Virus record (IMG/VR): IMGVR_UViG_2526164690_000043
Span: 1 to 13,417 of that record
Reading direction: 5' to 3' (one strand)
Length of the DNA stretch: 13,417 nucleotides
From: a virus
Taxonomy: Duplodnaviria; Heunggongvirae; Uroviricota; Caudoviricetes
A program made the position numbers and the translations under genes. Positions within the stretch are counted from its first letter, which is position 1, and every line of letters begins with the position of its first letter. The notes under the pieces are model-generated. The model made no database searches. It had not been told where the DNA came from and saw only the letters and a program-made list of their open reading frames with translations. Below are positions 1 through 13,417 of this stretch, piece after piece.

Positions 1-1230
1 ATGAGCAGAGCACTTAACAAACTGAGCGATACACAGCTGAGGAAAATCAACGGCACACCCGCCCAAAAAACAGCCTTTCTTAATGACGGTGGAAACCTGA
101 GCGTCAGGCATTCAACCAGCGGCCTTTTAACCTGGTATTTCACCTACAGGGCCGGAACGGGAAGGGGAGCACGACCGGAACGGATTAAGCTGGGAAATTA
201 TCCTGATCTGAGTCTGAAAGCTGCCAGGGAAAAAGCGGCACAGTGTCGCGCTTGGCTTGCTGAGGGGAAAAATCCACGTCATGAGATGAATTACACCGTA
301 CAGAAAGCGTTAAAGCCCGTAACGGTTGGCGATGCGCTTACCTACTGGCTTGAGTCTTACGTAAAGGAAAACCGCGTGGATTATGCCGCCCTGAAAAAGC
401 GCCTTAATAATCACGTAATACAGCACATTGGTGCTATGCCGCTGGATAAATGCGAGCTACGGCACTGGCTGGCCTGTTTTGACCAGGTGGCAAAGCGAAC
501 GCCTGTTACTGCCGGATTCTTGCTACAGACGTGCAAACAGGCGCTTAAGTTCTGCCGGAGGCGGCGCTATGCAATCAGCAACGTTCTTGATGATATGAGT
601 GTGGCGGACGTTGGGAAAAAACCGGATATAAGCGAGCGTGTCTTAAGCACCAAAGAACTTGGCGAATTATTGCAGGCACTGGACAAAAAAATATTTTCCC
701 CTTACTACGTCGCACTAATCCGCCTCCTGATTGTTTTTGGATGCCGGACGGTAGAACTGAGGTTATCGGAGATCAGCGAGTGGGATTTTACCGAAATGCT
801 CTGGACCGTGCCGAAAGAACACAGCAAAACGAAGGTGGCAATATTCCGGCCCATACCGGAAGCAATACTGCCGTTCGTCACGCAGCTGGTGGAGCAGAAC
901 AGGCACACGGGCTTATTGCTGGGGGAAGTGAAACAGGAAACAAGCGTGTCGCAGTACGGCAGATTAGCGCACAGGAGGCTAAAACACCCTCACTGGTCAC
1001 TGCATGACATCCGGCGCACCTTTACAACGATGCTGAACGATTTAGGCGTGGATCCTCACGTCGTGGAGCAGCTTACAGGTCATCAGATGCCAGGGATGCA
1101 ACGAGTCTATAACCATTCCCGTTATCTGGATGCGAAACGTGACGCGCTGGATATGTGGACGGAGCGGTTAGGGATACTGGCGGGAACACATGAAAACGTA
1201 ACCACATTGCCAATAGCCAGAGAAATATAA
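1..1230 (+). CDS. int: Tyrosine integrase, P4-like (N-terminal arm-binding DUF4102-type domain plus C-terminal catalytic domain)
   Basis: 409-aa ORF. The N-terminus (LSDTQLRK..DGGNLSVRHSTSGLLTWYFTYR..LGNYPDLSLKAAREKA) fits the P4-integrase arm-binding signature. Catalytic landmarks are GCRTVELRL (Arg), LHDIRRT (His-x-x-Arg) and VYNHSRY (Tyr). Confidence 0.95.
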   Translation: MSRALNKLSDTQLRKINGTPAQKTAFLNDGGNLSVRHSTSGLLTWYFTYRAGTGRGARPERIKLGNYPDLSLKAAREKAAQCRAWLAEGKNPRHEMNYTVQKALKPVTVGDALTYWLESYVKENRVDYAALKKRLNNHVIQHIGAMPLDKCELRHWLACFDQVAKRTPVTAGFLLQTCKQALKFCRRRRYAISNVLDDMSVADVGKKPDISERVLSTKELGELLQALDKKIFSPYYVALIRLLIVFGCRTVELRLSEISEWDFTEMLWTVPKEHSKTKVAIFRPIPEAILPFVTQLVEQNRHTGLLLGEVKQETSVSQYGRLAHRRLKHPHWSLHDIRRTFTTMLNDLGVDPHVVEQLTGHQMPGMQRVYNHSRYLDAKRDALDMWTERLGILAGTHENVTTLPIAREI

Positions 1231-1594: not shown

Positions 1595-1783
1595 GTGTTA
1601 AGCACAGATCGCTTTATACGTGAAAAAGAATGTCAGCAACTTACAGGCCTGAGCCGCTCATGTCGGTACCGCCTGGAAAAAGCCGGACAATTCCCATCAC
1701 GGCGTAAGCTGGGCGGTCGTTCCGTTGGCTGGTCTTTATCCGAAGTTCTGGCATGGAAGGACAGCTGCGAGGCAGTTCACTAA
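1595..1783 (+). CDS. alpA: AlpA-family (Vis/excisionase-like, HTH_17) phage regulatory protein
   Basis: 62-aa ORF with a GTG start preceded by AAAGGGGG. RFIREKECQQLTGLSRSCRYRLEKAGQFPSRRKLGGRSVGWSLSEVLAWK matches the AlpA pattern (TGLSrst.Y.l...G.FP.p.kLG.rsv.W...Ev..W). Confidence 0.9.
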   Translation: MLSTDRFIREKECQQLTGLSRSCRYRLEKAGQFPSRRKLGGRSVGWSLSEVLAWKDSCEAVH

Positions 1784-1835: not shown

Positions 1836-2738
1836 ATGAATACTGGATATTCTCCCGAACAAGGGCGGGGCTTCGTTCGTCCTGAAAAACAGAATCTGCA
1901 AAATTTTGCCGAAATTATTCCGGTTATTTCCGGCCTTACTGGCGGGAGTGAAACCAATATTGTTAACGCCAGAGCGTTGCAGATGTTTGATGATAAAAAG
2001 GGAGTAAATTTAACTTACACCCCTGACGGCAATCAGAATATGAGCATTATCTCTGAGTCAGGTTTCTACAAACTAATAAAAACAAAAAGCGCCCCGTTGC
2101 CGGAGCGCCTTTGTGAACAATTAACCTACTGCGCAAAAAATGAATCTGAGCAGTGGGATTATATCAACCATGTGGAGAAGCGCCACAATTGCCGAATAAC
2201 GGGCAAAACAAAGGCCACCCGCTACGGTGGCCCCTCGACACAAGCTACACGTTATCCCCAACGCATGAGCATTGCCAACAATGCCACATTTGCGGCTGGT
2301 GGGCAATGCAATCAGTCTGGTTCAGTTCGTTGCCATACCTGCAATGAGCGCTTTTCCCTGTACTCTTTAAGGAATTGCTCAAGGGCAAAAGCACATGGCG
2401 CGAATCTTTCTGATTCATGCTCTATCTTTCTGCGCCGTCTTTTCCGTGCCGGTGATAATGTTTTGGTCAATTCTTTATCGGTCATTGTGTTGTCCTGCAT
2501 AGCAATGCGCCGTAGTTACTCACACCACGGCGCTGGTGATGGTTACTCCTGCTCTTTGGCCTTGCGACGCTGGCGGCGTTTGATCTCACCTTTAACGGCA
2601 GTAACTATAAATTGCGCCTTGCTTTCACCTTCATCTAAATTTTTTCTAAGTCTGCAACAACATCATGCGGGAATCTGGCATTTAACTGTTGCGACTTATT
2701 ATTTGTTGAACCTGTTGCCATTACTGAATCCTCTCTAA
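1836..2738 (+). CDS. Hypothetical protein. Only the first ~100 codons look coding and the 3' ~600 nt of the ORF is probably an artefactual extension.
   Basis: The N-terminal part contains NMSIISESGFYKLIKTKSAP, reminiscent of the end of a Bro-N/antirepressor-type domain (weak). From ~2150 onward the translation is Cys/Ser/Arg/Leu-rich, as expected for an antisense frame. That part overlaps two better-supported minus-strand genes and their terminator. One extra A in the A6 run at 2135-2140 would give a stop (..CAKK*) at ~2144. Confidence 0.35.
   Translation: MNTGYSPEQGRGFVRPEKQNLQNFAEIIPVISGLTGGSETNIVNARALQMFDDKKGVNLTYTPDGNQNMSIISESGFYKLIKTKSAPLPERLCEQLTYCAKNESEQWDYINHVEKRHNCRITGKTKATRYGGPSTQATRYPQRMSIANNATFAAGGQCNQSGSVRCHTCNERFSLYSLRNCSRAKAHGANLSDSCSIFLRRLFRAGDNVLVNSLSVIVLSCIAMRRSYSHHGAGDGYSCSLALRRWRRLISPLTAVTINCALLSPSSKFFLSLQQHHAGIWHLTVATYYLLNLLPLLNPL
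2204..2232 (-). terminator. Rho-independent terminator of the minus-strand two-gene unit
   Basis: The minus strand reads GGCCACC-GTAGCG-GGTGGCC followed by TTTGTTTTG: a 7-bp GC-rich stem (2213-2219/2226-2232), a 6-nt loop and a T-tract. On the + strand no T-tract follows. Confidence 0.65.
2312..2485 (-). CDS. Small, highly basic hypothetical protein (57 aa from the second ATG)
   Basis: MTDKELTKTLSPARKRRRRKIEHESERF.. with AGGA 7 nt upstream of the ATG at 2485. It lies 57 nt downstream of the RHH gene on the same strand. The 3' end is uncertain, because a frame change near 2318 would extend it to a stop at 2245, just before the terminator. Confidence 0.45.
   Translation of the reverse strand: MTDKELTKTLSPARKRRRRKIEHESERFAPCAFALEQFLKEYREKRSLQVWQRTEPD
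2543..2721 (-). CDS. Ribbon-helix-helix (Arc/CopG/MetJ-like) DNA-binding protein, split by a 1-nt frameshift as given
   Basis: ATG at 2721 with AGAGGA 7 nt upstream. It reads MATGSTNNKSQQLNARFPHDVVADLEKI* (stop 2635-2637). The -1 frame continues LDEGESKAQFIVTAVKGEIKRRQRRKAKEQE* (stop 2543-2545). Joined, these give a typical ~59-aa RHH (beta strand QLNARFP, then two helices). The junction is the A6 run on the coding strand (T6 at 2640-2645). Confidence 0.65.
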
Positions 2739-2740
2739 GT

Positions 2741-2835
2741 TGGTGCGATTCAGTATACACAAAAAAAATTTCAGAGAAAGACTTGAAGTGCGATTCACTT
2801 ACTGATAGGTTAAAAACGAATGGTGCGATGCACCA
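2741..2835. promoter_or_regulatory. Divergent switch region: three operator-like copies of GTGCGAT(T/G)CA plus candidate divergent promoters
   Basis: TGGTGCGATTCAGTA at 2741-2755. AAGTGCGATTCACTT at 2786-2800 (AAGTG-N5-CACTT palindrome). TGGTGCGATGCACCA at 2821-2835 (TGGTGC-N3-GCACCA palindrome). Core starts are 45 and 35 bp apart. The candidate rightward promoter is TTGAAG (2783-2788), 17 bp, TAGGTT (2806-2811), overlapping copy 2. The candidate leftward -10 is TATACT (minus strand, 2752-2757), overlapping copy 1. Confidence 0.6.
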
Positions 2836-2911
2836 AACAACAACGCCCCGCAGTGGTGGCACACATGCAGGGCGTCTAACCACCAACGATAGCGAAAGTA
2901 TCGAGGTAGCT

Positions 2912-3112
2912 ATGAGAAATCATACCATACACCCGCAAGGGCGGGACTCGCACAACCTGAATAAATACATCTGGCGTTTTATCGCCCTGAGCACGGCACA
3001 ACCGCGCGTGATTACCATTGAGGCCACCAGCGAACAGGAAGCACGCCAGCAATCTCCGGCTGGCTGCGTGATGGTATTTGCTGCCCGTATTCGTCAGGGG
3101 GTAGGCTTATGA
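2912..3112 (+). CDS. Icd-like (host cell-division inhibitor-like) small protein, first gene of the rightward early operon
   Basis: 66 aa from the ATG at 2912 (GAGGT upstream). KYIWRFIALSTAQPRVITIEATSEQEARQQSPAGCVMVFAARIRQGV resembles the Icd-like family of P4-like islands (W.F.A....P.V....A.SE.EAR.......F.AAR). The track ORF starts at TTG 2783, which lies inside the operators. Confidence 0.6.
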   Translation: MRNHTIHPQGRDSHNLNKYIWRFIALSTAQPRVITIEATSEQEARQQSPAGCVMVFAARIRQGVGL

Positions 3113-3339
3113 GCCAGGAAATCACACTACAACAGGCAGCAGAACGCGCCCACCAAATCGAAGTTATTTGCGCACTGGCAGAGGATTACCCTGGCATGAT
3201 GACCGACAGCGAATCAGGGGCAATCATCGGCTTACTTAAACGCCTTAGCGGTGAGGTCTGCGTATTCCTGAGCGATGAACAGGAAAGAAGAACGCTTATT
3301 TCTAACGAAAAAAAATGCGGAGGGGTACATGTGCAATAA
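3109..3339 (+). CDS. Hypothetical protein (76 aa)
   Basis: ATGA start/stop overlap with the upstream gene and an acidic, helical composition. No family recognised. Confidence 0.55.
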   Translation: MSQEITLQQAAERAHQIEVICALAEDYPGMMTDSESGAIIGLLKRLSGEVCVFLSDEQERRTLISNEKKCGGVHVQ

Positions 3340-3553
3340 AACCACACCGGACGCAGCCGCCGCCGCGCTCACTACGCTGATGCACGCGCTTATTGATATT
3401 TCTGTTATTGCTGACAGGGCGCATAAACACGCAGCCAGAGAATCAGAATGCATCTTCCATTATTTAACATTTGTGCAGCTAAAAGCCGATCAGGCACTGG
3501 ATAAGGCCGGAAAAATTATCATGGCTGATGTGCAGGAGGTGCACCATGCATAA
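3329..3553 (+). CDS. Hypothetical protein (74 aa)
   Basis: ATG at 3329 preceded by GGAGGGG, so the internal start is preferred over the track start at 3275. No family recognised. Confidence 0.5.
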   Translation: MCNKTTPDAAAAALTTLMHALIDISVIADRAHKHAARESECIFHYLTFVQLKADQALDKAGKIIMADVQEVHHA

Positions 3554-3911
3554 CCTGTCAATTTCTGACCTTAACAGCATTCAGTTTGACGAGAAATTTA
3601 CCGGGCAGTTGCTGGTCAATGTGGAGAACGGGCGCATAGTGCGTAATTATCACCTGCCGGATGGTGCAATTGCCGGAAGCGTTGAAGCATTGCTGGAACT
3701 GGCGGAACGTGCGCGACTGATTAAGCCGTCAACGAGCCATCACGATGATGATCTGCATTTTACCGGATGTATGGTGAGTCACTACGAAAACGGCGTCGAG
3801 GTATCCTGCGAACGGCTGCGTGATGATTGCTGTTTCGGCACACTGCCGGAATTTATCGAGTTGCTGACCAGTTGCGGTTATCAGGTCATTCAGGGGGGTA
3901 AACATGCGTGA
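3546..3911 (+). CDS. Hypothetical protein (121 aa)
   Basis: ATG at 3546 preceded by AGGAGG, overlapping the upstream stop. No family recognised. Confidence 0.6.
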   Translation: MHNLSISDLNSIQFDEKFTGQLLVNVENGRIVRNYHLPDGAIAGSVEALLELAERARLIKPSTSHHDDDLHFTGCMVSHYENGVEVSCERLRDDCCFGTLPEFIELLTSCGYQVIQGGKHA

Positions 3912-4125
3912 TGATCGTTTTAATTCCCTGAAACAGGAATTTTCCGGCGTTCCTGATGATGCGGCTGATGCGCTTTCGTCAATATCTGAAATTATGCGGG
4001 TGGCTTTTTTCTTTCTTTGCACTGATGAGCACAGAGATACAGGGCTAAATATTCTTGATATTGCCGCTAACTATGCTGATTTCGTGACAGAAGCTGTTTT
4101 AAGAAAAACAACGGACGGGGATTAA
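3904..4125 (+). CDS. Hypothetical protein (73 aa)
   Basis: ATG at 3904 preceded by GGGGGT, with an 8-nt overlap of the upstream gene. No family recognised. Confidence 0.55.
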   Translation: MRDDRFNSLKQEFSGVPDDAADALSSISEIMRVAFFFLCTDEHRDTGLNILDIAANYADFVTEAVLRKTTDGD

Positions 4126-4126
4126 T

Positions 4127-4360
4127 ATGCGTGATATTTACCACGAAACAATAGACCGCGCATTTAGTGCCCTTGCTTACGCTGAAGGTATGTACGAAAT
4201 ATTGCGCATATGGCTTGAAACACTTGGCGACAATGAACGCGACAAACAAAAATCAAGAATTGTCACGGCATTAATAACGCTTCTTGAGCCTGTAATAATG
4301 GAACTGCAAGAAATAGATCTATTGCACGACAGATATAAAGAACAGCACACCGGAGAATAA
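4127..4360 (+). CDS. Hypothetical protein (77 aa)
   Basis: ATG one nt after the upstream stop, preceded by GGGGA. Helical composition. No family recognised. Confidence 0.55.
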   Translation: MRDIYHETIDRAFSALAYAEGMYEILRIWLETLGDNERDKQKSRIVTALITLLEPVIMELQEIDLLHDRYKEQHTGE

Positions 4361-4365
4361 AAATA

Positions 4366-4665
4366 ATGAAACTTAAATATTCTGGCTTAACTGCCAGTGG
4401 CAACACTCACCCTAAATTTACGCGCGGCGATATTTACCGCGACCAGTACGGCGGCACGGTAATGATTAAGGGCGTGGCGGGACGGTGCGTAACCTACCGC
4501 CGTGAAGGTTACGAATATGATTGCGTGATGCCTGTTTATCAGTTCCGGCGTGATTTTTCTCTGGTACAGACCGCGCCGCATAACGTGCCCACCAGCAACG
4601 CCAGGGCACGGGCAAACATCCAGAAGCTGAAAACCATGATTAACGGATTCAGGGGCAAGAAATGA
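4366..4665 (+). CDS. Hypothetical protein, possibly DUF4222-like
   Basis: GDIYRDQYGGTVMIKGVAGRCVTYRREGYEYDCVMPVYQFRRDFSLV resembles the small beta-rich DUF4222 pattern seen in enterobacterial prophages. This rests on memory only. Confidence 0.45.
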   Translation: MKLKYSGLTASGNTHPKFTRGDIYRDQYGGTVMIKGVAGRCVTYRREGYEYDCVMPVYQFRRDFSLVQTAPHNVPTSNARARANIQKLKTMINGFRGKK

Positions 4666-6059
4666 AAAGCGCACCGAACTTAAAAAAACAGCCTTACGAC
4701 AAGATGACCGAAGTCATTATTTTTGCGGGTAGTGATGCCTGGGCACATGCGAAACAGTGGCAGGAACAGGACGGGCGACTGGCTGGCGATAATGTGCCTC
4801 CCGTTGTGCTGGCTGATGATCAACTGGATGAACTGGCAGACCTGAGAATCATCGACGAGGGGCGCTATTGTGTCCGGCTGTACAAGGCAGGCCACATCAG
4901 GCCATCAAATATTAATGCCATTGCGCACAAGCTGGCAGCGGCAGGTGTACAGGATGCGAATTACTACCCCGATGGGATGCACAGCCAGAAGCGGGAGAAC
5001 TGGCGCGAATATCTGGAACGGGAGCGCGGGGAAAAGCAGGAAGAAAAAGGCCACCAGCGCAAAACAAAGCTACCGATGAGCGTTGGTTCTGCCGGATATG
5101 ACACGCAACTGGATTACGTGGTTAAGGGGATTATTCCGGCGGTATCGCTTTGCAGCATATACGGGGCGAGCGGTTCCTATAAATCGTTCCTTGCGGGTTC
5201 GTGGGCGTGTCACGTTTCCACGGGCCGCCAGTGGGGAGGCCGCAGGGTGGCGCATGGCGCTGTTCTCTATGTGGTTGGTGAAGGCGGTATCGGCGTTCCG
5301 CGTCGTGTAAAAGCCTGGGAGGTTGTGCACGGTGAGCAGGTGAAAAATCTTTACCTTGTAAACCGTCCCATCTTTCCGGCTGCCCCGCTTGATGTTGATG
5401 AAATGGTTATCGCTGCCCGTCAGGTGGAGCGGGAAACGGGTAAACCTGTTCGAATGATTATTCTGGATACGCTGGCGCGCTGCTTTGGCGGCAATGATGA
5501 AAATGACTCCCGTGATATGGGGACGTTTATCCGTGGGTGTGACGAACTGAAACGACGCACAGGGGCCACGGTGCTGGTGGTTCACCATTCCGGCAAGGAT
5601 GAGACGAAAGGCGCGCGCGGTTCCAGTGCATTTCGTGCTTCGCTGGATGCTGAATACCGGATACGCAGGGAGGACGCAGGAAGCGAAGCGCTGGTTATCT
5701 CATGCACCAAAATGAAGGACGCGGAGGAACTCAAAGAAGCCGCATATGACTTACGCGTGGTGGAGCTTTTTACCGACGCTGACGGGGAGTTAATCACGTC
5801 GCTGGTGGTGGTGGATAAGCCGCGCCCTCCCGTTGAACTGGAGCGCATCGAGGAGGCAGGGAACAAGACGGAGAATCACGCCGCGCTATGGCAGTGCATC
5901 AGAACACGAACAGCACACGGGGAGGCGTGCACTATCGCCCTTCTCCGCGACGATATGAAAAAGCTGGGGTATGAGATGAAGCACTTCCGGCGCTGGCTGT
6001 ACAAGCTGGAAAATGATGGCGTAATCGTTATTGACGGTGATGACGTGCGCCCGCTGTAA
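4662..6059 (+). CDS. Replication initiator/helicase, RepA-like RecA-fold ATPase (AAA_25 type) with a C-terminal winged-helix-like tail
   Basis: 465 aa. Walker A is YGASGSYKS and Walker B is VRMIILDTLARC. VLVVHHSGKDETKGARGSSA is typical of RepA/DnaB-like AAA_25 proteins. ATGA-coupled to the upstream ORF, and the iteron array begins at its stop codon. Confidence 0.85.
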   Translation: MKSAPNLKKQPYDKMTEVIIFAGSDAWAHAKQWQEQDGRLAGDNVPPVVLADDQLDELADLRIIDEGRYCVRLYKAGHIRPSNINAIAHKLAAAGVQDANYYPDGMHSQKRENWREYLERERGEKQEEKGHQRKTKLPMSVGSAGYDTQLDYVVKGIIPAVSLCSIYGASGSYKSFLAGSWACHVSTGRQWGGRRVAHGAVLYVVGEGGIGVPRRVKAWEVVHGEQVKNLYLVNRPIFPAAPLDVDEMVIAARQVERETGKPVRMIILDTLARCFGGNDENDSRDMGTFIRGCDELKRRTGATVLVVHHSGKDETKGARGSSAFRASLDAEYRIRREDAGSEALVISCTKMKDAEELKEAAYDLRVVELFTDADGELITSLVVVDKPRPPVELERIEEAGNKTENHAALWQCIRTRTAHGEACTIALLRDDMKKLGYEMKHFRRWLYKLENDGVIVIDGDDVRPL

Positions 6060-6260
6060 AAAGTGGGGAGTAAAAGTGGGGAGAGTGGGGAATTTAACAA
6101 AATTGAAACATAATTACCCACTTTCCCACCTGTATATACCCAAAAAAGTGGGGAGTAAAAAATATATTGAAAAACATCACGTTAGAATCACAAAAAGAAG
6201 AGGTGGGGAGACGGTGGGTAATTTCAAAAAGTGGGGAGCAAAAGTGGGGAGTAGTGGGGA
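6059..6260. repeat. Iteron-type origin of replication (ori)
   Basis: Nine direct copies of RGTGGG(G/T)A start at 6062, 6075, 6084, 6147, 6202, 6213, 6230, 6243 and 6253. Two inverted copies lie at 6115-6122 and 6124-6130. A triple-iteron block (6059-6095) is repeated at 6227-6263. These flank AT-rich segments at 6092-6116 and 6155-6200. Confidence 0.8.
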
Positions 6261-6512
6261 ATGAACAGAAAAACCAGAGATAAGACAGCGCCAAAATATA
6301 AAGCGTTAGACATGACAGAGCTTTCCCTAAAGGTGGCAATCAGAACGATAGACCGACACGTAGGGGAAGGATACGCGAAGGAACATCCCGACCTGATAAG
6401 CGCATTCATGACCACAGCAGCGGCAAACTTTGCCACGCTGACAGAACGGGAGATTGCCGAAGCGGAACAGGTAACAACCATCAACGTTAAAACCGGAGAG
6501 GTGGAATCATGA
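6261..6512 (+). CDS. Hypothetical protein (83 aa; alternative start at 6312)
   Basis: The ATG follows the last iteron directly, and GGGGA could act as the SD. The gene is coupled (ATGA) to the next ORF. No family recognised. Confidence 0.5.
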   Translation: MNRKTRDKTAPKYKALDMTELSLKVAIRTIDRHVGEGYAKEHPDLISAFMTTAAANFATLTEREIAEAEQVTTINVKTGEVES

Positions 6513-6814
6513 GCGAACCAAAATTTGGTGAAAAACTTTACAAGCACAACGGACGGATCACGATTCAGCAAATAAGCGCAGCTACACCAGGCTGGTGGGT
6601 TGAAACAGACGAAGGATCATCACCCGTGGCATCATGGGCGCTTTGTGTGCTTAGTTACCCTGACCGCGATGTGTATCAGGATATTCTGCCTGTGATATCC
6701 ACTGACAAAGGCATGAAACCCGTAGACATCAAAAACATGGGTTTTCAGTGCGTAATGCTCACTGAAAAAATGATGGAAGAGATGAAAAAGAACAACGCCG
6801 GATCGCTTCACTGA
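6509..6814 (+). CDS. Hypothetical protein (101 aa)
   Basis: ATGA overlap with the upstream ORF and a plausible globular composition. No family recognised. Confidence 0.55.
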   Translation: MSEPKFGEKLYKHNGRITIQQISAATPGWWVETDEGSSPVASWALCVLSYPDRDVYQDILPVISTDKGMKPVDIKNMGFQCVMLTEKMMEEMKKNNAGSLH

Positions 6815-6823
6815 GGTGGCAAT

Positions 6824-7234
6824 ATGACAGCACAAATTGCAGCTTACGGGCGCCTGGTGGACGACCCGCTGGTAAAACAGAGCAGCAAGGGCACACCGAT
6901 GACTCTGGCGCGTATGGCGGTATCGTTGCCATGCAGCCAGGCACATGACGGACAGGCGACGTTATGGTTATCGGTTATCGCATTTGGCAAACAGGCCGAT
7001 TTCCTGGCTAAACATCAAAAAGGCGATGTTGCCAGCGTATCCGGCACGATGCAGGTAAGCCAGTGGACCGGACAGAACGGGGAAACACGGCAGGGGTATC
7101 AGGTTATTGCAGACAGCGTAATCAGTGCCCGTGCGGCACGTCCTGGCGGGAACAGACGCAAAACCACAGGCACACAGGGTAATCAGCCACCAGCGGGAGG
7201 CGATGACCCTTACGGTGATGATATTCCGTTCTGA
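6824..7234 (+). CDS. ssb: Single-stranded DNA-binding protein
   Basis: 136 aa. The OB-fold N-terminus (GRLVDDPLVKQSSKGTPMTLARMAV..WLSVIAFGKQADFLAKHQKGDVASVSGTMQVSQW) is followed by a Gly/Pro/Gln-rich linker and the canonical acidic tip DDIPF at the C-terminus. Confidence 0.9.
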   Translation: MTAQIAAYGRLVDDPLVKQSSKGTPMTLARMAVSLPCSQAHDGQATLWLSVIAFGKQADFLAKHQKGDVASVSGTMQVSQWTGQNGETRQGYQVIADSVISARAARPGGNRRKTTGTQGNQPPAGGDDPYGDDIPF

Positions 7235-7246
7235 GGGGTGGGGACG

Positions 7247-7519
7247 ATGGTACATGACCGCATAGCGGAAGAGCTGGAGGCGAAAGGCTTTTACCGGAGA
7301 GCGTCGGCGCGATGGGGTGAAGTCATGCAGCTGGTGGAGACAGACAAGGAACGGCATCACATCACGATGCGACGGCTGGAATGTTGCAGGAAGGCACAGA
7401 GGCCACCGGAGCCACCGGATAATTACGGAGACCTGAAAAAGGCAGTCGATCGCACTTATGCCGAAATGGGGATAGATGGTGCTGGTGATGAAATATGGCG
7501 CAATTACCAGGACAGCTAA
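7247..7519 (+). CDS. PerC-family transcriptional regulator-like protein
   Basis: MVHDRIAEELEAKGFYRRASARWGEVM matches the PerC/Pch N-terminal signature (A..LE..G.[WY]RRA..RW.EVM). About 90 aa, as is typical. The track start is GTG 7238, but ATG 7247 is preferred. Confidence 0.6.
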   Translation: MVHDRIAEELEAKGFYRRASARWGEVMQLVETDKERHHITMRRLECCRKAQRPPEPPDNYGDLKKAVDRTYAEMGIDGAGDEIWRNYQDS

Positions 7520-7525
7520 TCACAC

Positions 7526-7549
7526 AGCCGGAGAAATCCGGCTTTTTTT
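7526..7549 (+). terminator. Rho-independent terminator T1
   Basis: AGCCGGA-GAAA-TCCGGCT followed by a T-run through 7549, starting 7 nt after the perC-like stop. Confidence 0.8.
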
Positions 7550-7644
7550 GCACCAGTTGAAACGGTATGGCGCATTACCGGGTTTTCGTCACGGTCTGGC
7601 ATAGTTACTATCTGAAACAAACAGACACAACAGAGGAAAAAACA

Positions 7645-7986
7645 ATGCCGATGAAATTTGATGAGATATTAAAACAGCGTGATAAATACCATGCTGACAA
7701 CATGGAGACGATGAGCATCAATGATTACCGCGCATTCCTGGAGACGGGCGCACTGATTGAAAAGGATCAGCATGGTTTTGTGAGATGTGCTCTATCCGGT
7801 GAAATGCTGGCGGTAAATCCTGAACAGATAGATGCATTGATAGAATTTCTGAAAGGGATCAGGACTGAGCACGCATACAGCCGGAGCAATCCGGTCTTTT
7901 TGTCATTTTTTGTAAATTATTTGTTCGTGGTTGTTCCACGTTGTTCACTGACAGGATCGGCATATTTTACCCGAACTGAATCATGA
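7645..7986 (+). CDS. Hypothetical protein; 3' end doubtful because the ORF reads through a terminator-like hairpin
   Basis: ATG at 7645 preceded by AGAGGA. MPMKFDEILKQRDKYHADNMETMSINDYRAFLETGALIEKDQHGFVRCALSGEMLAVNPEQIDALIEFLKG looks coding. The tail (..FLSFFVNYLFVVVPRCSL..) crosses hairpin T2 and repeat array B. One extra G in the G3 run at 7855-7857 would end the protein as ..FLKGDQD* just before T2. Confidence 0.45.
   Translation: MPMKFDEILKQRDKYHADNMETMSINDYRAFLETGALIEKDQHGFVRCALSGEMLAVNPEQIDALIEFLKGIRTEHAYSRSNPVFLSFFVNYLFVVVPRCSLTGSAYFTRTES
7879..7901 (+). terminator. Terminator-like hairpin T2, a near-copy of T1
   Basis: CAGCCGGAGCAATCCGGTCTTTTTG compared with T1 CAGCCGGAGAAATCCGGCTTTTTTTG. 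The stem is shorter (GCCGGA/TCCGGT with a G-U pair) and is followed by CTTTTTGTCATTTTTTG. Confidence 0.5.
7917..7950 (-). repeat. Array B: three 10-bp-phased GAACAA(C) boxes, inverted relative to array A
   Basis: On the + strand, TTGTTC sits at 7921-7926, 7931-7936 and 7941-7946. The minus strand reads GTGAACAACGTGGAACAACCACGAACAAATAA, the same unit and register as 1252-1313. Confidence 0.75.
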
Positions 7987-8022
7987 GTATTCTCGCCCGT
8001 GGTGCCAGGACGCTGGGGCCAC

Positions 8023-8070
8023 TTTCCCGCCTGTTAATGTGCTCGCCAATATTCATTACCAGGCGGGAAA
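8023..8070 (+). promoter_or_regulatory. Perfect 11-bp inverted repeat in the leader of the head operon
   Basis: TTTCCCGCCTG (8023-8033) and CAGGCGGGAAA (8060-8070) are separated by 26 nt. No T-tract follows on either strand, so this is an RNA stem-loop or a protein-binding palindrome rather than a terminator. Confidence 0.55.
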
Positions 8071-8123
8071 ACGATCGGTGCGATTGCTGATTTCCTTATG
8101 AAAAACGGTTGAGTGTTTGCCGC

Positions 8124-8160
8124 GTCCTGGAGTTCCTTACTTAACCCCAGGACTTTTTTT
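8124..8160 (+). terminator. Intrinsic terminator-like hairpin abutting the capsid start codon
   Basis: GTCCTGG (8124-8130) pairs with CCAGGAC (8147-8153), and 8132-8134/8143-8145 can extend the stem. T7 (8154-8160) follows, then ATG at 8161. The only SD-like element for the capsid gene (AGGA, 8149-8152) lies in the 3' arm of the stem. Confidence 0.65.
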
Positions 8161-9318
8161 ATGCCGAGAATAATCGAATTACGCCAGCAGAAAACCGCCA
8201 TTAAAAATCAGATGCGCGACATGCTGGAGAACGCGGAAAAAGAAAACCGCAGTCTTAACGATGCTGAGGGCGCAAAATTTGACGAATTACGCGCTAAAGC
8301 TGAATCCCTCGATAAAGACATTTCCCGCCTTGAAGCCATTGCAGACGAAGAGCGCAGCAAGCCAGGTAAAAGCAGTCAGACCACTGACCCCGCAGAACTA
8401 CGCAACTACATTCTGACAGGTGAAACCCGCGCATTAAGTACAGGCGTTCCCGCTGATGGTGGTTATACCGTTATCCCTGAACTGAACACCGAAATCATGC
8501 GAATGCTGGCGGATGAATCCACCATGCGCCGCATCTGTACCGTGAAGAAAATCAGCAGCAACGAGTTTAAGCAGCTTGTTTCCGCTGGCGGTGCGACCGT
8601 TAACCACGGTGAAGAGGGTAAGGCACGCGAACAGACCAGCCCCCCGCAGATTAACGAGGTGAGCATTAAGCTGTATCCGGTCTATGCGTACCCGCGCACC
8701 ACACAGGAAATCGTGGATTTTTCCGATGTGGACATCCTTTCATGGCTGACGGGTGAGATTGGCGACACCTTCACGGAAACCGAAGAAAGCGATCTGGTTG
8801 TGGGCGACGGTGACAAAAAAGCAAAAGGTTTTTTATCCGTACCCCGTGCAGAGAAGAACGACAAAGAGCGTGATTTTGGTACGTTGCAGGTAATTAAACC
8901 TTCCGAATCTCTGGCGTGGACATCTGCGGACCCGCTGATCGACCTGAAATTTGCATTACGTAAAAATAACCGCAAAAACGCGGTCTGGGTGGTTAACTCC
9001 ACGACGGCGGCAAAACTTCAGAAGGTGAAGAACGCGAACGGTGATTATATCTGGCGCGACCGTTTACAGGCGGGTGATCCTGATACGTTGCTGGGCCTTC
9101 CGGTCGAATATCTGGAGTTTATGCCTGATAACGTTATTGCCCTGGGTGACTTCAAACGCGGTTACTACATTGTTGATCACGAAACAGGTGTTCGCACCAG
9201 ACCGGACAACCTCACAGAGCCGGGCTTCATCAAAATTTTCACGCAGAAATATTTAGGCGGTGGCGTGGTGGATTCGAACGCGATCAAGATTCTGGAACTG
9301 CCACAGGACGACGATTAA
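8161..9318 (+). CDS. Major capsid protein, HK97 fold/family, with an N-terminal coiled-coil delta (scaffolding) domain
   Basis: 385 aa from the ATG at 8161 (the track ORF starts at GTG 8113, inside the leader). The N-terminus IELRQQKTAIKNQMRDMLENAEKENRSLNDAEGAKFDELRAKAESLDKDISRLEAIADEER is typical of HK97-family delta domains. The body carries family-like stretches such as GGYTVIPELNTEIMRML and ..NAVWVVNSTTAAKLQKVKNANGDYIWRD..LLGLPVEY. Confidence 0.92.
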   Translation: MPRIIELRQQKTAIKNQMRDMLENAEKENRSLNDAEGAKFDELRAKAESLDKDISRLEAIADEERSKPGKSSQTTDPAELRNYILTGETRALSTGVPADGGYTVIPELNTEIMRMLADESTMRRICTVKKISSNEFKQLVSAGGATVNHGEEGKAREQTSPPQINEVSIKLYPVYAYPRTTQEIVDFSDVDILSWLTGEIGDTFTETEESDLVVGDGDKKAKGFLSVPRAEKNDKERDFGTLQVIKPSESLAWTSADPLIDLKFALRKNNRKNAVWVVNSTTAAKLQKVKNANGDYIWRDRLQAGDPDTLLGLPVEYLEFMPDNVIALGDFKRGYYIVDHETGVRTRPDNLTEPGFIKIFTQKYLGGGVVDSNAIKILELPQDDD

Positions 9319-9328
9319 CAGCATACAG

Positions 9329-9348
9329 AAGGGGCTTAAAAGCCCCTT
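9329..9348 (+). other. Stem-loop between the capsid and protease genes
   Basis: AAGGGGCT-TAAA-AGCCCCTT, followed by TAGTGTTTTAT (a weak T-tract). It may act as a partial terminator or mRNA-stabilising hairpin that raises capsid output relative to downstream genes. Confidence 0.5.
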
Positions 9349-9380
9349 TAGTGTTTTATGGGTGAAAAATTATGAAGAGT

Positions 9381-9930
9381 ATGGAAATCCGGTCATACGG
9401 AAATCACCACCAGCGCCAGCAACACGCTGACAGGCTACGTTGTTCGCTGGGATAAGCTTTCAGAGCTGCTATGGGGGGAGTTTTACGAAAAATTCCAGCG
9501 GGGAGCGTTTACTGAATGGCTTGCGGCGGGTAATGACGTTCGCGGCCTGTATGAGCATGACCACAGCATGTTGCTGGGGCGTACCCGTTCCGGCACGCTG
9601 AAACTGGAAGAGGACGAAACAGGGTTACGCTTTGAACTGACCCCACCGGATACCAGCACAGGGCGGGACGTTATCGAACTGGTTAAACGTGGTGATATAT
9701 CCGGCATGAGCTTTGGCTTTCGTTCCCGTAAGGATGTATGGGATACCACAACAGATCCATGCGTGCGCACCGTGCTGGTTGCGGAACTGTACGAAATTAC
9801 CGTCACATCCGTACCGGCTTACCCTGATTCCGGCGTGGAGCTGGCCCGCCGCTCCCTGTACGAGCAGCACCCCGAAAAAATGCCGCGTGCGGATAATCGC
9901 CGCTGGTGGGCGGATTTAGCGGGGGTGTGA
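9381..9930 (+). CDS. Prohead (capsid maturation) serine protease, HK97 gp4 family, frameshifted near codon 7 as given
   Basis: ATG 9381 gives MEIRSYG, then runs out of frame to a stop at 9450-9452. The frame opening at 9400 reads EITTSASNTLTGYVVRWDKLSELLWGEFYEKFQRGAFTEWLAAGNDVRGLYEHDHSMLLGRTRSGTLKLEEDETGLRFEL..RGDISGMSFGF.., which carries the family His (EHDH) and Ser (GMSFGF) motifs. The track ORF 9568-9930 covers only the distal part. The junction is at GG 9399-9400. Confidence 0.85.
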
Positions 9931-9931
9931 T

Positions 9932-11146
9932 ATGTGGCCTTTTCAGAAGAAAAAAAAGAGCAGCGCTAGCATGACGCTTGATGAGTTTATGGCGCTGGCT
10001 GGCACATCGAACACGGGGGCGGGTGAGTACGTATCATCGGGGACAGCGGAATCACTGCCCGCCGTCATGAACGCCGTCACGGTCATCTCTGAGGCGGTGG
10101 CTACCATGCCGTGTTACCTGTACCTGGTACGCAATGAGAAGGGGAAGGAGGCCCGAGAGTGGCTTGATTCTCATCCGGTCGATCACATCCTCAACGAGCG
10201 CCCGAACGCATGGCAAACCCCCTACCAGTTTAAGCGAATGATGATCCGCCACTGCCTGTTAAACGGTAATGCTTATGCGGTGATTCAGTGGGGGCGTGAT
10301 GGTTTTCCGGTGGCTTTACATCCTTACCCGCCGCAGTCGGTGAACGTTGAGCAGACAGGTGAGCATAACTGGCGCTACTGCATCACTGACGCCTACACCG
10401 GAAACACCCGCAACTATTTACCGTGGGAGGTTCTCCACCTTCGTTACTCCACGGATGACGGTTTTATGGGGCGCTCACCTGTAACCATCTGCCGCGAATC
10501 GCTGGGGCTTGGGCTGGCCCAACAACGCCACGGCGCGAGCGTGATGCGTGATGGCATGATGGCGGCAGGGGTTATCACGTCAGGCGAATGGCTGGACGGC
10601 GTGAAGGGCAAACAGGCATTAGCCGCACTGGAACGCTACAAAGGGGCCAGAAACGCCGGAAAAACGCCCATCCTTGAAGGGGGTATGAGCTATCAGCAGC
10701 TGGGCATGAGTAATCAGGATGCTGAATGGCTGGCCTCCCGTCGCTTCACCATTGAAGACATCGCCCGAATGTTCAACGTCTCGCCGATTTTTCTGCAGGA
10801 ATACAGCAACAGCACCTATAGCAATTTCAGCGAGGCAAGCCGCGCATTTCTCACCATGACGATGCGCCCGTGGCTGGCGAACTTTGAGCAGCAGATAAAA
10901 AACGCCCTGCTGGTGGCCTCGCCTGTACCTGGTATCCGGTATCAGGTGGAGTTTGTACAGCGCGGACCTGTTACGGGCCACACCTGGCGAACGCTTTGCC
11001 ACCTATGAACGCGGCATCAAATCCGGCGTTATGTGCCCGAACGAAGCCCGCGAACGTGAAGGGCTGTCCCGCGTGATGGTGGTGATGAGTTCAGCCAGGC
11101 ATGGAAACAGGAAGTAAAAATCAGCGAGGGAGAAAAACCGGAATGA
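9932..11146 (+). CDS. Portal protein, HK97 family, with two compensating frameshifts in the 3' end as given
   Basis: ORF 9932-11008 (358 aa) has portal-like content (..HPVDHILNERPNAWQTPYQFKRMMIRHCLLNGNAYAVI.., ..FTIEDIARMFNVSPIFLQEY..). The conserved C-terminus is readable only by moving to another frame from ~10953 (LYSADLLRATPGERFATYERGIKSGVMCPNEAREREGLS) and back at ~11070 (..DGGDEFSQAWKQEVKISEGEKPE*, stop 11144-11146). That stop overlaps the next gene's ATG in an ATGA. Confidence 0.88.
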
Positions 11147-11481
11147 ACATAGGGCGACTGCGTGACAGGGTAACGATTCAGACCCTGAAACAGACCAGGG
11201 ATATAACCGGCGAAATACTCGAAACGTGGGTGGACGGTCACACACTCTGGGCAAGCGTGAACATGATCAGCAGCAAGGAGGCCATTTCATCGGGTGCAGA
11301 ACTGGCGACTGGAACGGTAAGGATATGGATACGCTACAGGAAGGACATCAACGCCACCAGCCGGATAAAGGTCAATACGGGGCCGCTGGCGGGGCGTGTA
11401 CTGAATATCATCGGGCAACCGCTGCCGGATGCCGCCAGGACACGCCTTGAAATTCTTTGTCGTGAGGGCGCGGAAAAATGA
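11143..11481 (+). CDS. Head-closure / head-tail joining protein (Phage_H_T_join, SPP1 gp16-like)
   Basis: MNIGRLRDRVTIQ...ETWVDGHTLWASVNMISSKEAISSG...VRIWIRYRKDINATSRIKV...LEILCRE matches the family pattern (L..RV.I......W......WA.v...s..E........i.IRYR.di....RI.....l.l.C.E). The track start at 11101 is replaced by ATG 11143, which is ATGA-coupled to the portal gene. Confidence 0.85.
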   Translation: MNIGRLRDRVTIQTLKQTRDITGEILETWVDGHTLWASVNMISSKEAISSGAELATGTVRIWIRYRKDINATSRIKVNTGPLAGRVLNIIGQPLPDAARTRLEILCREGAEK

Positions 11482-11774
11482 CAGAAGAACTTATCACCCT
11501 GGAAGAAGTGAAACTCCATTGCCGCATCGATGGCGACGAGGAAGACCAGTTAATCAGCGGATACATTGCCGCATCGCTTGAGGCGTGCCAGATACATATA
11601 GGCAGGCGCTTTGATGACGGGCTGGAGTTCACGCCGGCCATAAAGATTGGCTGCATGATGTTTATCGCTCACCTGTACGAGAATCGCCAGCTGGTAGCGG
11701 ATAACGCAAAAACACGCGTACCCATGACGATAGGCGCACTCTGGACGGCTTACCGTGATGTGGGGGTGTACTGA
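11478..11774 (+). CDS. gp6-like head-tail connector (adaptor) protein (Phage_connect_1)
   Basis: LITLEEVKLHCRIDGDEEDQLISGYIAASLEACQIHIGRRF....IAHLYENRQ matches the gp6-like signature (l.evK.hlRid.d.eD.li..li.aA......y.gr......lva.lYenR). ATGA-coupled upstream. Confidence 0.85.
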   Translation: MTEELITLEEVKLHCRIDGDEEDQLISGYIAASLEACQIHIGRRFDDGLEFTPAIKIGCMMFIAHLYENRQLVADNAKTRVPMTIGALWTAYRDVGVY

Positions 11775-12213
11775 TGCCGTGGCAACCATTAAGACGATGT
11801 ACAGAACCAGGCTGTAACAGGCGCGTTAAGTCCGGCAAGTGTGAGGAGCACAGGCGGGCGGCATGGCGTGCAGAGGATGCCAGACGAGGACACCGCCGCG
11901 CGCGTGGGTACTCCAGACAGTGGGAAAAATACCGCGCCATGTATCTGAGTAAAACCCGTTATGCGTGCGATGCCTTGAGAAGGGGATATATACGCCCGCC
12001 GTGGTGGTGGATCACATTATCCCGATTAATGGCGGTGATGATGTTCTCTTCTGGCCCGAATGGAACCATCAGCCATTGTGCCAGGCGTGTCATAACCAGA
12101 AAACGAAGTGGCTTGATCCGGCAACAAAAAGCAAGCGTGCCGCAGGTGGATTTCGTGAAGAGGAAGAACGGGCCGCTAACCGCAATAACTGGATGTATGA
12201 CGCTGATGAATGA
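11774..12213 (+). CDS. HNH endonuclease (HK97 gp74-like packaging accessory nuclease), frameshifted as given
   Basis: The N-terminal part (11774 onward) reads MPWQPLRRCTEPGCNRRVKSGKCEEHRR...RGYSRQWEKYRAMYLSK. The core, in the -1 frame (open from 11953; track ORF 11965-12213), reads NPLCVRCLEKGIYTPAVVVDHIIPINGGDDVLFWPEWNHQPLCQACHNQKT (H-N-H motif). The junction is the A4 run at 11951-11954, and A5 would fuse the two as ..YLSKNPLCVRC... Confidence 0.85.
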
Positions 12214-12379: not shown

Positions 12380-12501
12380 TGAGGCTGTATGACGGGGTGG
12401 GGGGCGTTTTCAGGACAAACCCGACCCCGCCGGGCACCGAACGCCTCCTCAAATTTTTATGCACGGGAATTTTTTGAAAAATAATCTGGCGAAAAATAAG
12501 C
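12380..12501. other. Candidate cos / terminase recognition region
   Basis: This is the only sizeable non-coding gap in the packaging module, and it lies just upstream of terS, as in HNH-dependent HK97-like cos phages. A G-rich block ACGGGGTGGGGGGCG (12392-12406) faces a C-rich block CCCGACCCCGCCGGG (12420-12434). Phased A/T tracts follow (AAATTTTTAT, AATTTTTTGAAAAATAAT; 12451-12485). Confidence 0.45.
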
Positions 12502-12858
12502 ATGGCAAGACCACCGAAAGCCCCCGCCTACCTGAATGACATCGCCGTGAAGCAGTGGCGGGAAAAATCGCGGCAGCTTGCGGAACGGGGAGACCTTACC
12601 CCCGCCGACTGGAGTAATCTGGAACTGTATTGCGTCAATTACTCGATATACCGGAAAGCCGTCGCAGACCTTGCGGCGCGCGGGTTCAGCATTGTTAACA
12701 GTCAGGGTGGCGAGAGCAGAAACCCCGCATTAAGCGCAAAATCCGACGCTGAAAGAGTGATGATAAAAATGGCCTCCTTGCTCGGTTTTGACCCGATAAG
12801 CCGCCGTAAAAATCCACCGGAAACAGAAGAAGAGGACGAGCTTGACCGCCTGGAATAA
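12502..12858 (+). CDS. terS: Terminase small subunit, P27 family
   Basis: PKAPAYLNDIAVKQWREKSRQLAERGDLTPADWSNLELYCVNYSIYRKAVADLAARGFSIVNSQGGESRNPALSAKSDAERVMIKMASLLGFDPISRRK follows the P27-family TerS pattern (P..L...a...W..l...l...g.l...D...l..yc......r.a...l...G.......g....nPa........l......efGltP.sR.k). Confidence 0.9.
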   Translation: MARPPKAPAYLNDIAVKQWREKSRQLAERGDLTPADWSNLELYCVNYSIYRKAVADLAARGFSIVNSQGGESRNPALSAKSDAERVMIKMASLLGFDPISRRKNPPETEEEDELDRLE

Positions 12859-13417
12859 GTACGCAGAAGACGTAAAAACGGGCAAAATTCCGGCCTGTAA
12901 ACGGCTGAAACAGGCCGTTAAACGGTACTTTTCGGACCTTGAAAGCCCCCTTTACACGTTCGATCGTGAGGTTGTGGAGCGGTTTATTGCCTTTTCCAGG
13001 GTGTGCCCGCACGTAAAAGGGCCGATGCGTGGCAGACCCATTGAGCTGGAGCCGTGGCAGCAGTTCGCCTTTGCGTGCATCCTCGGCTTTAAGGTTAAGG
13101 CCACCGGACGGCGCAAATACACGAGCGCCTTTATCGAAGTGCCGCGCAAAAATGCGAAATCCACGACCGCCGCGATTCTGGCTAACTGGTTTCTGATTAT
13201 GGAGAACGGTCAGCAGGATATCTACACCGCAGCGGTGAGCCGTGACCAGGCGCGGATCGTCTTTGATGATGCGCGTCAGATGTGCCTTTTATCCCGACCG
13301 TTACGCAGGCGGGTGAATATTCAGGCGCATAAGGTGATACACCCGAAAAGCAACAGCCTGTTAAAGCCGCTGGCAGCAAAAGCGGCAACCATCGAGGGAA
13401 CAAACCCCAGCCTTTCC
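12842..13417 (+). CDS. terL: Terminase large subunit (Terminase_1-like ATPase domain), 5' partial, running off the window
   Basis: The frame is open from 12800 to the window end and is absent from the track because it has no stop. The likely TTG start at 12842 has GAGGA 5 nt upstream and overlaps the terS end. It reads TAWNKYAEDVKTGKIPACKRLKQAVKRYFSDL..HVKGPMRGRPIELEPWQQFAFACILGF..IEVPRKNAKSTTAA (Walker A-like PRKNxKS)..IYTAAVSRDQARIVFDDA. Confidence 0.9.
   Translation, partial: MTAWNKYAEDVKTGKIPACKRLKQAVKRYFSDLESPLYTFDREVVERFIAFSRVCPHVKGPMRGRPIELEPWQQFAFACILGFKVKATGRRKYTSAFIEVPRKNAKSTTAAILANWFLIMENGQQDIYTAAVSRDQARIVFDDARQMCLLSRPLRRRVNIQAHKVIHPKSNSLLKPLAAKAATIEGTNPSLS

Follow-up and report, generated by a model that had tools for sequence, protein, structure and literature searches.

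Frameshifts in a capsid-forming PICI of the Escherichia coli DEC8C draft genome most probably represent sequencing or consensus errors

The frameshifts that interrupt several genes of the capsid-forming PICI (cf-PICI) in the draft genome of Escherichia coli DEC8C are most probably sequencing or consensus-calling errors in an ordinary element, produced by two superimposed processes, and not mutations carried by the strain. Private to the draft, the lesions are paired and clustered in a duplicated module, in which the P alleles match the paralogous copy.

Identity of the island

The analyzed stretch of 13,417 nt (the window) corresponded to positions 8855-22271 of contig AIGH01000024.1 in the 2012 draft assembly GCA_000249835.2 of strain DEC8C. 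The island to which it belongs spans about 14.8 kb, is flanked by roxA on the left and by phoQ on the right, and was present in an O157:H7 genome at 99.2% identity; the best match of the window in finished genomes had 99.7% identity, with 13 single-base indel events. Judged from its gene content and order, the element is a cf-PICI of the EcCIEDL933 type, i.e., of an already known kind. The proteins of the PICI core at the left end (Phage_integrase, Phage_AlpA, AAA_25/RepA helicase) were identical to their counterparts in the intact ortholog. Downstream, Pfam and RefSeq annotation recovered the order capsid-protease-portal-connectors-hnh-terS-terL, with three of these genes interrupted in the contig (Table 1). 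The whole arrangement, with int, alpA and the replication module preceding the packaging genes, is that published for EcCIEDL933, the cf-PICI prototype (Alqurainy et al., bioRxiv 10.1101/2022.09.08.507074), which has been shown by experiment to be induced by a helper phage and to use only the tails of the latter. As in the prototype, no tail or lysis genes were found in the finished ortholog island from int to the small ORF before phoQ (locus L001, 3001-17798). The difference from EcCIEDL933 comprised nothing biological: only the interrupted protease, portal, HNH and YlcI/YnfO genes of this single draft copy.

Table 1. Genes and other features of the DEC8C island within the window
Feature	Position	Strand	State
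Tyrosine integrase	1-1230	+	Intact, identical to WP_000085269.1; island left end, adjoins roxA
AlpA-type regulator	1595-1783	+	Intact; PF05930
ORF without family match	1836-2738	+	Overlaps minus-strand genes
YlcI/YnfO family gene	2543-2721	-	Frameshift, T7 to T6 at 2640-2645
RepA-family helicase, replication module	4662-6059	+	Intact
Intergenic A5GAA (A9 in relatives)	6192-6199		One base lost plus A to G
74-aa hypothetical gene	7645-7986	+	GGG to GG at 7862-7863
HK97-type major capsid gene	8161-9318	+	In frame; private A6TA to A5TAA at 8962-8969
Prohead protease, Peptidase_S78	9358-9930	+	Two indels near start; rest intact
Portal gene	9932-11146	+	Five indels, N- and C-terminal
Head closure gene	11143-11481	+	In frame; paralog-allele block 11231-11338
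Head-tail connector gene	11478-11774	+	Protein identical to ortholog
HNH endonuclease gene	11774-12213	+	Frameshift at codon 60
Small terminase, P27 family	12502-12858	+	Intact
Large terminase, 5' part	12842-13417	+	Last 8 variant sites (13210-13408) all paralog allele

Position and nature of the lesions

Base-by-base alignment of the window with the intact orthologs located the indel events, which disrupted the YlcI/YnfO gene, the 74-aa ORF, the protease, the portal and the HNH gene. A preliminary description of this DNA had listed seven lesions, of which three were placed exactly, three were displaced by 2-7 nt (two of these being insertions outside any run) and one did not exist, while several others had been missed. 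Exact were the split of the YlcI/YnfO gene (taken there for RHH) at T6, where the relatives have T7; the split of HNH at AAAA 11951-11954 (A5 in the relatives), with the HNH domain lying just downstream of the break in the other frame; and CCC at 11068-11070 (C4 in the relatives). The last belongs to the compensating pair proposed for the portal, which was confirmed and leaves 37 codons with 2 stops off frame, but its partner had been misplaced to TTT 10952-10954: the change is a T inserted at 10956, separated from this run by one G. The protease was indeed disrupted, not at GG 9399-9400 but by an A inserted at 9397, where there is no run; together with an A6 to A5 loss at 9365-9369 (codons 3-5), absent from the earlier list, it shifts the frame over 9 codons, one of them a TGA. 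The implausible extension of ORF 7645 did result from a run lesion, sited at 7862-7863 and not at GGG 7855-7857, by which the 74-aa gene lost its stop and gained 39 aa; an extra T at 7895, also unlisted, restores the length but sits past the normal stop in intergenic DNA. The A6 run at 2135-2140, blamed for the extension of ORF 1836, was identical in all relatives compared (L001-L003 and DEC10B).

Likewise absent from the earlier list were three insertions at the portal N-terminus (T3 to T4 at 9940-43, A7 to A8 at 9950-57 and an extra T at 9967; net +3, with 9 residues rewritten), the intergenic change of A9 and the capsid change, which replaces K by N and Y by N and yields a protein variant found in one contig alone among about 15 billion proteins. 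A look-up of the 358-aa portal ORF gave no match because another start had been chosen by the gene caller. The lesions formed five closely spaced length-conserving combinations. Since the partner of the 7862 deletion is intergenic, selection for frame restoration cannot explain this pairing.

Distribution of the lesions among E. coli genomes

The junctions were searched in 5,426 finished E. coli genomes, giving 71-377 homologous places per junction. The state of the window occurred in none of them, be it at the YlcI/YnfO site, the 7862/7895 pair, the protease pair, the portal N-terminus, the portal pair or HNH, and the best junction matches differed from the window by exactly the indels. In the comparison with homologous islands suggested in the preliminary description, all indel states tested were thus absent from the finished genomes, and the finished orthologs and paralog that were examined proved intact at every site. 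The intact comparators, i.e., the ortholog (L001), the paralog (L006), a recombinant (L007) and a distant island (L004), agreed mutually against the window.

The product of the T6-dependent ORF is known from just two drafts, DEC8C and DEC10B, which belong to different serotype lineages and come from the same project. The DEC10B island was otherwise identical to the finished reference, apart from a G6 to G5 change of its own; it had a T7 to T6 change in the flank in common with DEC8C, the two drafts having two such T7 to T6 sites in common. The 8.1 kb core flank of the DEC8C contig showed three T-run losses and no substitutions. The T8 to T7 change in espW, in this flank, was also present in 12 of 546 finished genomes, so that espW, taken as a control outside the island, was neutral with regard to private breakage, and length variation of long runs can be real; a T7/T8 polymorphism was found at 1231 as well.

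The private substitutions amounted to two, both synonymous, against 13 indel events, and no private missense or nonsense change was present in the window relative to the comparators. Each of the other substitutions matched a natural allele, either of the paralog or of another island, an example being the 4330/4332 variant present in L004 and L007. Such an indel-heavy spectrum is the wrong one for decay; spontaneous mutations in E. coli reportedly include substitutions and indels at roughly 10:1 (Lee et al. 2012 PNAS).

Homopolymers and the duplicated module

The association with homopolymers was real: all seven single-base losses fell into runs of 3 or more, which make up 18.6% of the bases (P about 8e-6), as did 9 of the 13 indel events taken together (P about 9e-5). 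In the earlier claim that every disrupted gene is broken at a mononucleotide run, "every" is an overstatement because four insertions lie outside runs. Moreover, 93% of positions have a run of at least 2 nt no farther than 3 nt away, so that attribution of a break to "GG" is uninformative. In unique DNA the undercalls rose with run length (affected were about 4 of the 11 runs with at least 7 nt, 1 of the 106 with 5-6 nt and 0 of the roughly 690 with 3-4 nt), while short runs (3-4 nt) were affected solely inside the duplicated module. The one-base run losses, their dependence on run length, the recurrence of sites in a sister draft and their absence from finished genomes resemble the homopolymer miscalls of flow-based or early long-read drafts, from which the non-run insertions and the damage to short runs depart. 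These four insertions are not a classic error of homopolymer chemistry.

The capsid-packaging module comprises 5.8 kb and has a second copy, 98-99% identical, in the tqsA island of related genomes. It makes up 43% of the window and contained 11 of the 13 indel events (P=0.003; P=0.0005 with the 8.1 kb core flank counted). Within it 28 substitutions matched the allele of the paralog (P), interleaved with alleles of the ortholog (O) and with switches from one to the other over 3-12 nt (at 7782, 8086 and 9429); the paralog-type block of the head closure gene corresponded to the tqsA island. The contig ended 1 nt past the window, within the two-copy repeat, in the large terminase. The same combination of alleles over about 1 kb was found in no finished genome (best 99.5 and 99.7%). 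Interleaved alleles of nearly identical copies, a locally raised error rate and a contig end in a repeat are features of a collapsed or chimeric repeat consensus in short-read drafts; at variance with this, recombination between these two copies also occurs in nature.

Other sources of the differences were considered and rejected. Miscalls at methylation motifs at 11301-11338, where two GGTACC and one GATC are lost compared to the ortholog, were discarded, since many finished genomes contain these 161 nt at 100% identity, among them RM8385 in its tqsA island. A third, decayed paralog as the indel donor was not supported either: the indels occurred in no place of any finished genome. A uniform error rate across the assembly did not fit the first 1,840 bp of the flank, which were 100% identical to RM8385, nor the 8.1 kb flank free of substitutions, and because the errors were not uniform the model was refined to two processes.

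In the first process, one-base undercalls of long homopolymers would have occurred along the whole contig, and also in the sister draft of the same project. In the second, the consensus would have been locally poor over the capsid-packaging module: reads or assembly paths from one copy were apparently combined with those from the other, which may have given rise to the interleaved alleles, the private short-run indels, the stray insertions and the contig break. This presumes that DEC8C itself carries the tqsA paralog, that the alleles were mixed during assembly and that the true island is intact and functional. As regards the choice between homopolymer miscalls and decay posed in the preliminary description, which favoured the former, the error branch gained support from the private lesions, the T6 state in two drafts of one project and the intact finished copies, but homopolymer error covers only half of the matter, given the non-run insertions and the concentration in the duplicated module.

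Alternative explanations

If the indels are artefacts, the substitutions may nevertheless be real, with the roxA-phoQ island having recombined with the tqsA island and the indels alone being erroneous. This version, which overlaps with the preferred one, is a tenable though less probable account of the allele mosaic. In strain RM6927 the island at this site has recombined naturally, its head-closure allele being of the P type and the surrounding sequence of the O type, and P alleles are common in finished genomes; the mosaic therefore need not be an artefact, and the 4330/4332 variant is natural in any case. The closely spaced allele switches, the absence of the same combination from finished genomes and the coincidence of the mosaic with the indel cluster and the contig end speak against it. 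It would alter the origin of the substitutions alone, leaving the verdict on the frameshifts unchanged.

Genuine decay by slippage, in which protease, portal C-terminus, HNH and YlcI/YnfO were truly lost, leaving a defective cf-PICI that forms no particles, is improbable. Replication slippage likewise yields losses in runs, run lengths at espW and 1231 do vary in finished genomes, and the lesions were concentrated in the island and not in the core flank, a clustering that decay of the element also predicts. As in degraded prophages and satellites, several structural genes were interrupted by frameshifts; however, such cryptic elements carry lesions inherited by descent along with substitutions and deletions, whereas those of DEC8C were private to one draft, paired and unaccompanied by damaging substitutions. 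No lesion was common by descent to related strains, the T6 state being limited to two drafts that differ in serotype lineage but originate from a single project. Furthermore, decay would hardly have produced five length-conserving combinations, one of which includes an intergenic change, in an element that shares 99.7% identity with intact copies, nor clustered the damage in the duplicated module, rather than spreading it island-wide, in the same region as the contig break.

Were the calls real, they would imply a burst of +/-1 changes in the packaging genes, several of them compensated within 24-111 nt, through a local indel-prone process (e.g., error-prone repair during recombination of two resident islands) or through run-length switching of particle production, which together are very improbable. 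Switching itself, with the homopolymers as contingency loci or programmed frameshift sites toggling particle formation, is scarcely credible: in several packaging genes the lesions did lie at runs or close to them, and the espW run is variable, but the off state occurred in 0 of about 350-370 homologous places at any packaging-gene site in finished genomes, the runs measure only 3-7 nt, four lesions are outside runs, and the intact orthologs read through the sites without a frameshift.

Implications

Published mutagenesis has shown that each gene of the packaging module is required for transfer (10.1101/2022.09.08.507074), and the earlier conditional statement that the island could not form particles if the calls were real is correct on these grounds. 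True lesions would immobilize the island and make it a routine cryptic element; the premise that the calls are real is, however, very probably false. The contig is unfit for calling a "defective" cf-PICI or for inferring the loss of protease, portal and HNH in DEC8C. The practical point is one of data hygiene: surveys of satellites or pseudogenes will score too many genes as broken if the 2012 DEC drafts are among their data, most of all in modules duplicated within a genome.

Identity of the island

By ORF listing and family searches, the left part of the window carries genes for an integrase and AlpA, an Icd-like gene, and then genes for a RepA-family helicase, SSB and PerC. The morphogenesis genes come next, for the HK97-type capsid, the protease (Peptidase_S78), the portal, and head closure and connector proteins, and the window ends with HNH, the small terminase (P27 family) and the 5' part of the large terminase gene. 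Capsid-forming PICIs (prototype EcCIEDL933; 10.1101/2022.09.08.507074) have been described with this same set of genes in this order. The window was traced by exact-protein match to positions 8855-22271 of the 22,272-nt draft contig AIGH01000024.1 (GCA_000249835.2) of E. coli DEC8C, ending one base short of the contig end, within terL. A megablast search of 5,426 finished E. coli genomes recovered this island in the interval from roxA to phoQ, at best 99.7% identical over the full length and never 100% identical. Dense substitution blocks in the O157:H7 copy (L003) relative to the window and RM8385 occupy window positions 3984-4263 and 12449-12654; they are mosaic segments, typical of inter-island recombination.

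Lesions and their association with runs

Alignment of the window with the finished ortholog island of strain RM8385 (O103; L001) gave 40 substitutions, six missing and six extra bases, and at all of these differences two more finished genomes sided with RM8385. Manual resolution of the alignment, with the lesions listed one by one, brought the total to 13 indel events.

Lesions of the window relative to the finished ortholog island
Window position	Change	Gene and effect
2640-45	T7 to T6	YlcI/YnfO gene
6192-99	A9 to A5GAA	intergenic
7862-63	GGG to GG	stop of 74-aa ORF lost
7895	+T	intergenic
8962-69	A6TA to A5TAA	capsid, two residues altered
9365-69 and 9397	A6 to A5, extra A	protease; nine off-frame codons including TGA
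9940-43, 9950-57, 9967	T3 to T4, A7 to A8, +T	portal N-terminus, net +3
10956 and 11068-70	+T, C4 to C3	portal C-terminus; 37 off-frame codons, two stops
11951-54	A5 to A4	HNH, codon 60

The surviving ORFs cover the Pfam models Peptidase_S78, Phage_portal and HNH only partially, while the intact orthologs match them across the junctions, in agreement with the preliminary description. A 300-aa ORF at 1836-2738, without a match in the family search, overlaps the minus-strand YlcI/YnfO gene and a 57-aa gene, its length being set by the T run at 2640; the 429-aa 'Icd-like' fusion annotated across this region in some records is likely an over-annotation.

All seven single-base losses fell in runs of three or more (P about 8e-6), and nine of the 13 indel events were in runs (P about 9e-5). 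The link between broken genes and homopolymers proposed in the preliminary description is therefore real, but not universal, four insertions being outside runs. Three of its seven sites (2640, 11068, 11951) were exact and three were displaced by 2-7 nt; the A6 at 2135 is the same in every relative compared. The protease and portal breaks, ascribed to GG 9399 and TTT 10952, are insertions at 9397 and 10956, outside any run, and the lesion of ORF 7645 lies not in GGG 7855 but in another run, at 7862. Since 93% of positions have a run of two or more no farther than 3 nt away, attribution to a 'GG' carries no information. Also missed were the A-run of the protease, the N-terminal portal changes, the capsid swap, and the changes at 7895 and 6192.

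Occurrence of the lesions in other genomes

Short sequences from six junctions (the YlcI/YnfO site, the 7861/7895 pair, the protease pair, the portal N-terminus, the portal pair and HNH) had 71 to 377 homologous places per junction in finished genomes, and the window's state was present in none of them, favoring the sequencing error considered previously; the top matches were separated from the window only by the indels. The ortholog, the paralog, a natural recombinant and a 96% relative were mutually concordant and all against the window. The capsid variant occurred in one contig only among about 15 billion proteins, and the T6-dependent 300-aa ORF only in DEC8C and DEC10B, a draft from the same collection. 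The 173-kb DEC10B contig across the island equaled the finished reference except for the shared T6 and its own G6 to G5 change (L008 20564, window-equivalent 12399) in the spacer ahead of terS, which is a further sign of run undercalls in the drafts of this project. A second T7 to T6 change common to both drafts was located in the flank.

The 8.1 kb of DEC8C core flank was free of substitutions but had lost three single bases, each from a T run. One of these losses, outside the window, is in the T8/T7 run of the T3SS effector gene espW (L009 884-891), whose shorter state truncates the call from 352 to 153 aa. As 12 of 546 finished genomes share this state with DEC8C, espW was counted as a neutral control; the shorter run may be either a true polymorphism or a miscall that recurs. 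The T run just past the integrase stop (1231-1237) is T7 in the window and RM8385, whereas the finished genomes L002 and L003 have T8, so that run length varies in finished assemblies too.

A second copy of the packaging module

RM8385 and other EHEC genomes have a second, 98-99% identical copy of the window from about 7140 on; this copy is part of an island inserted in tqsA and encodes an identical portal protein. That part, the final 43% of the window, harbored 11 of the 13 events (P=0.003; P=0.0005 with the flank included). In the duplicated region, 28 window substitutions matched the paralog allele, interleaved with ortholog alleles and with some switches within 3-12 nt; the final eight variant sites ahead of the contig end were all of paralog type, and the contig stops within the repeat, about 1.4 kb short of its end.

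In RM8385 the tqsA island occupies L006 2633-16561 and the roxA-phoQ island L001 3001-17798. Related EHEC genomes have two cf-PICI-type islands with 98-99% identical capsid-to-terL and strongly diverged int-to-SSB modules, an arrangement suggestive of modules shared by co-resident satellites. The roxA-phoQ island of RM6927 (L007 10090-16430) is a natural recombinant of the two allele sets at the same site: its connector/HNH region is of roxA type except for the head-closure allele, which is of tqsA type, and it shows a real exchange between both island lineages. The 4330/4332 variant is likewise a natural allele, and the window's allele combination over about 1 kb was found in no finished genome. 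Part of the substitution mosaic may be genuine recombination; whether genuine or artefactual, its origin is without effect on the verdict on the frameshifts.

Origin and consequences of the lesions

The best-supported account of the lesions, and on sequence comparison a highly probable one, is an artefact with two components: long homopolymers would have been undercalled, as is typical of these drafts, and a low-quality, probably mixed consensus would have been produced over a module presumed to be two-copy in DEC8C. Real decay of the island, the other explanation offered in the preliminary description, is improbable: under it, lesions would be shared through common descent, damaging substitutions would be present and the duplicated module would not be hit preferentially, whereas the first two were not seen and such a preference was. 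Only two private substitutions, both synonymous, accompany the indels, and comparison with the ortholog, paralog, recombinant and 96% relative revealed no private missense or nonsense change in the window, a mutation spectrum that argues against decay. Several lesion combinations, spaced 1-111 nt, conserve length, and selection for frame restoration cannot explain the pairing because the loss at 7862 has an intergenic partner. Functional run-length switching is hardly credible; the roughly 350-370 intact homologous places lend it no support.

The pattern of broken genes is very probably not a property of the organism. Were the calls true, the island would be immobile, since every packaging-module gene of the prototype EcCIEDL933 is needed for transfer (10.1101/2022.09.08.507074), and it would represent a routine cryptic element.
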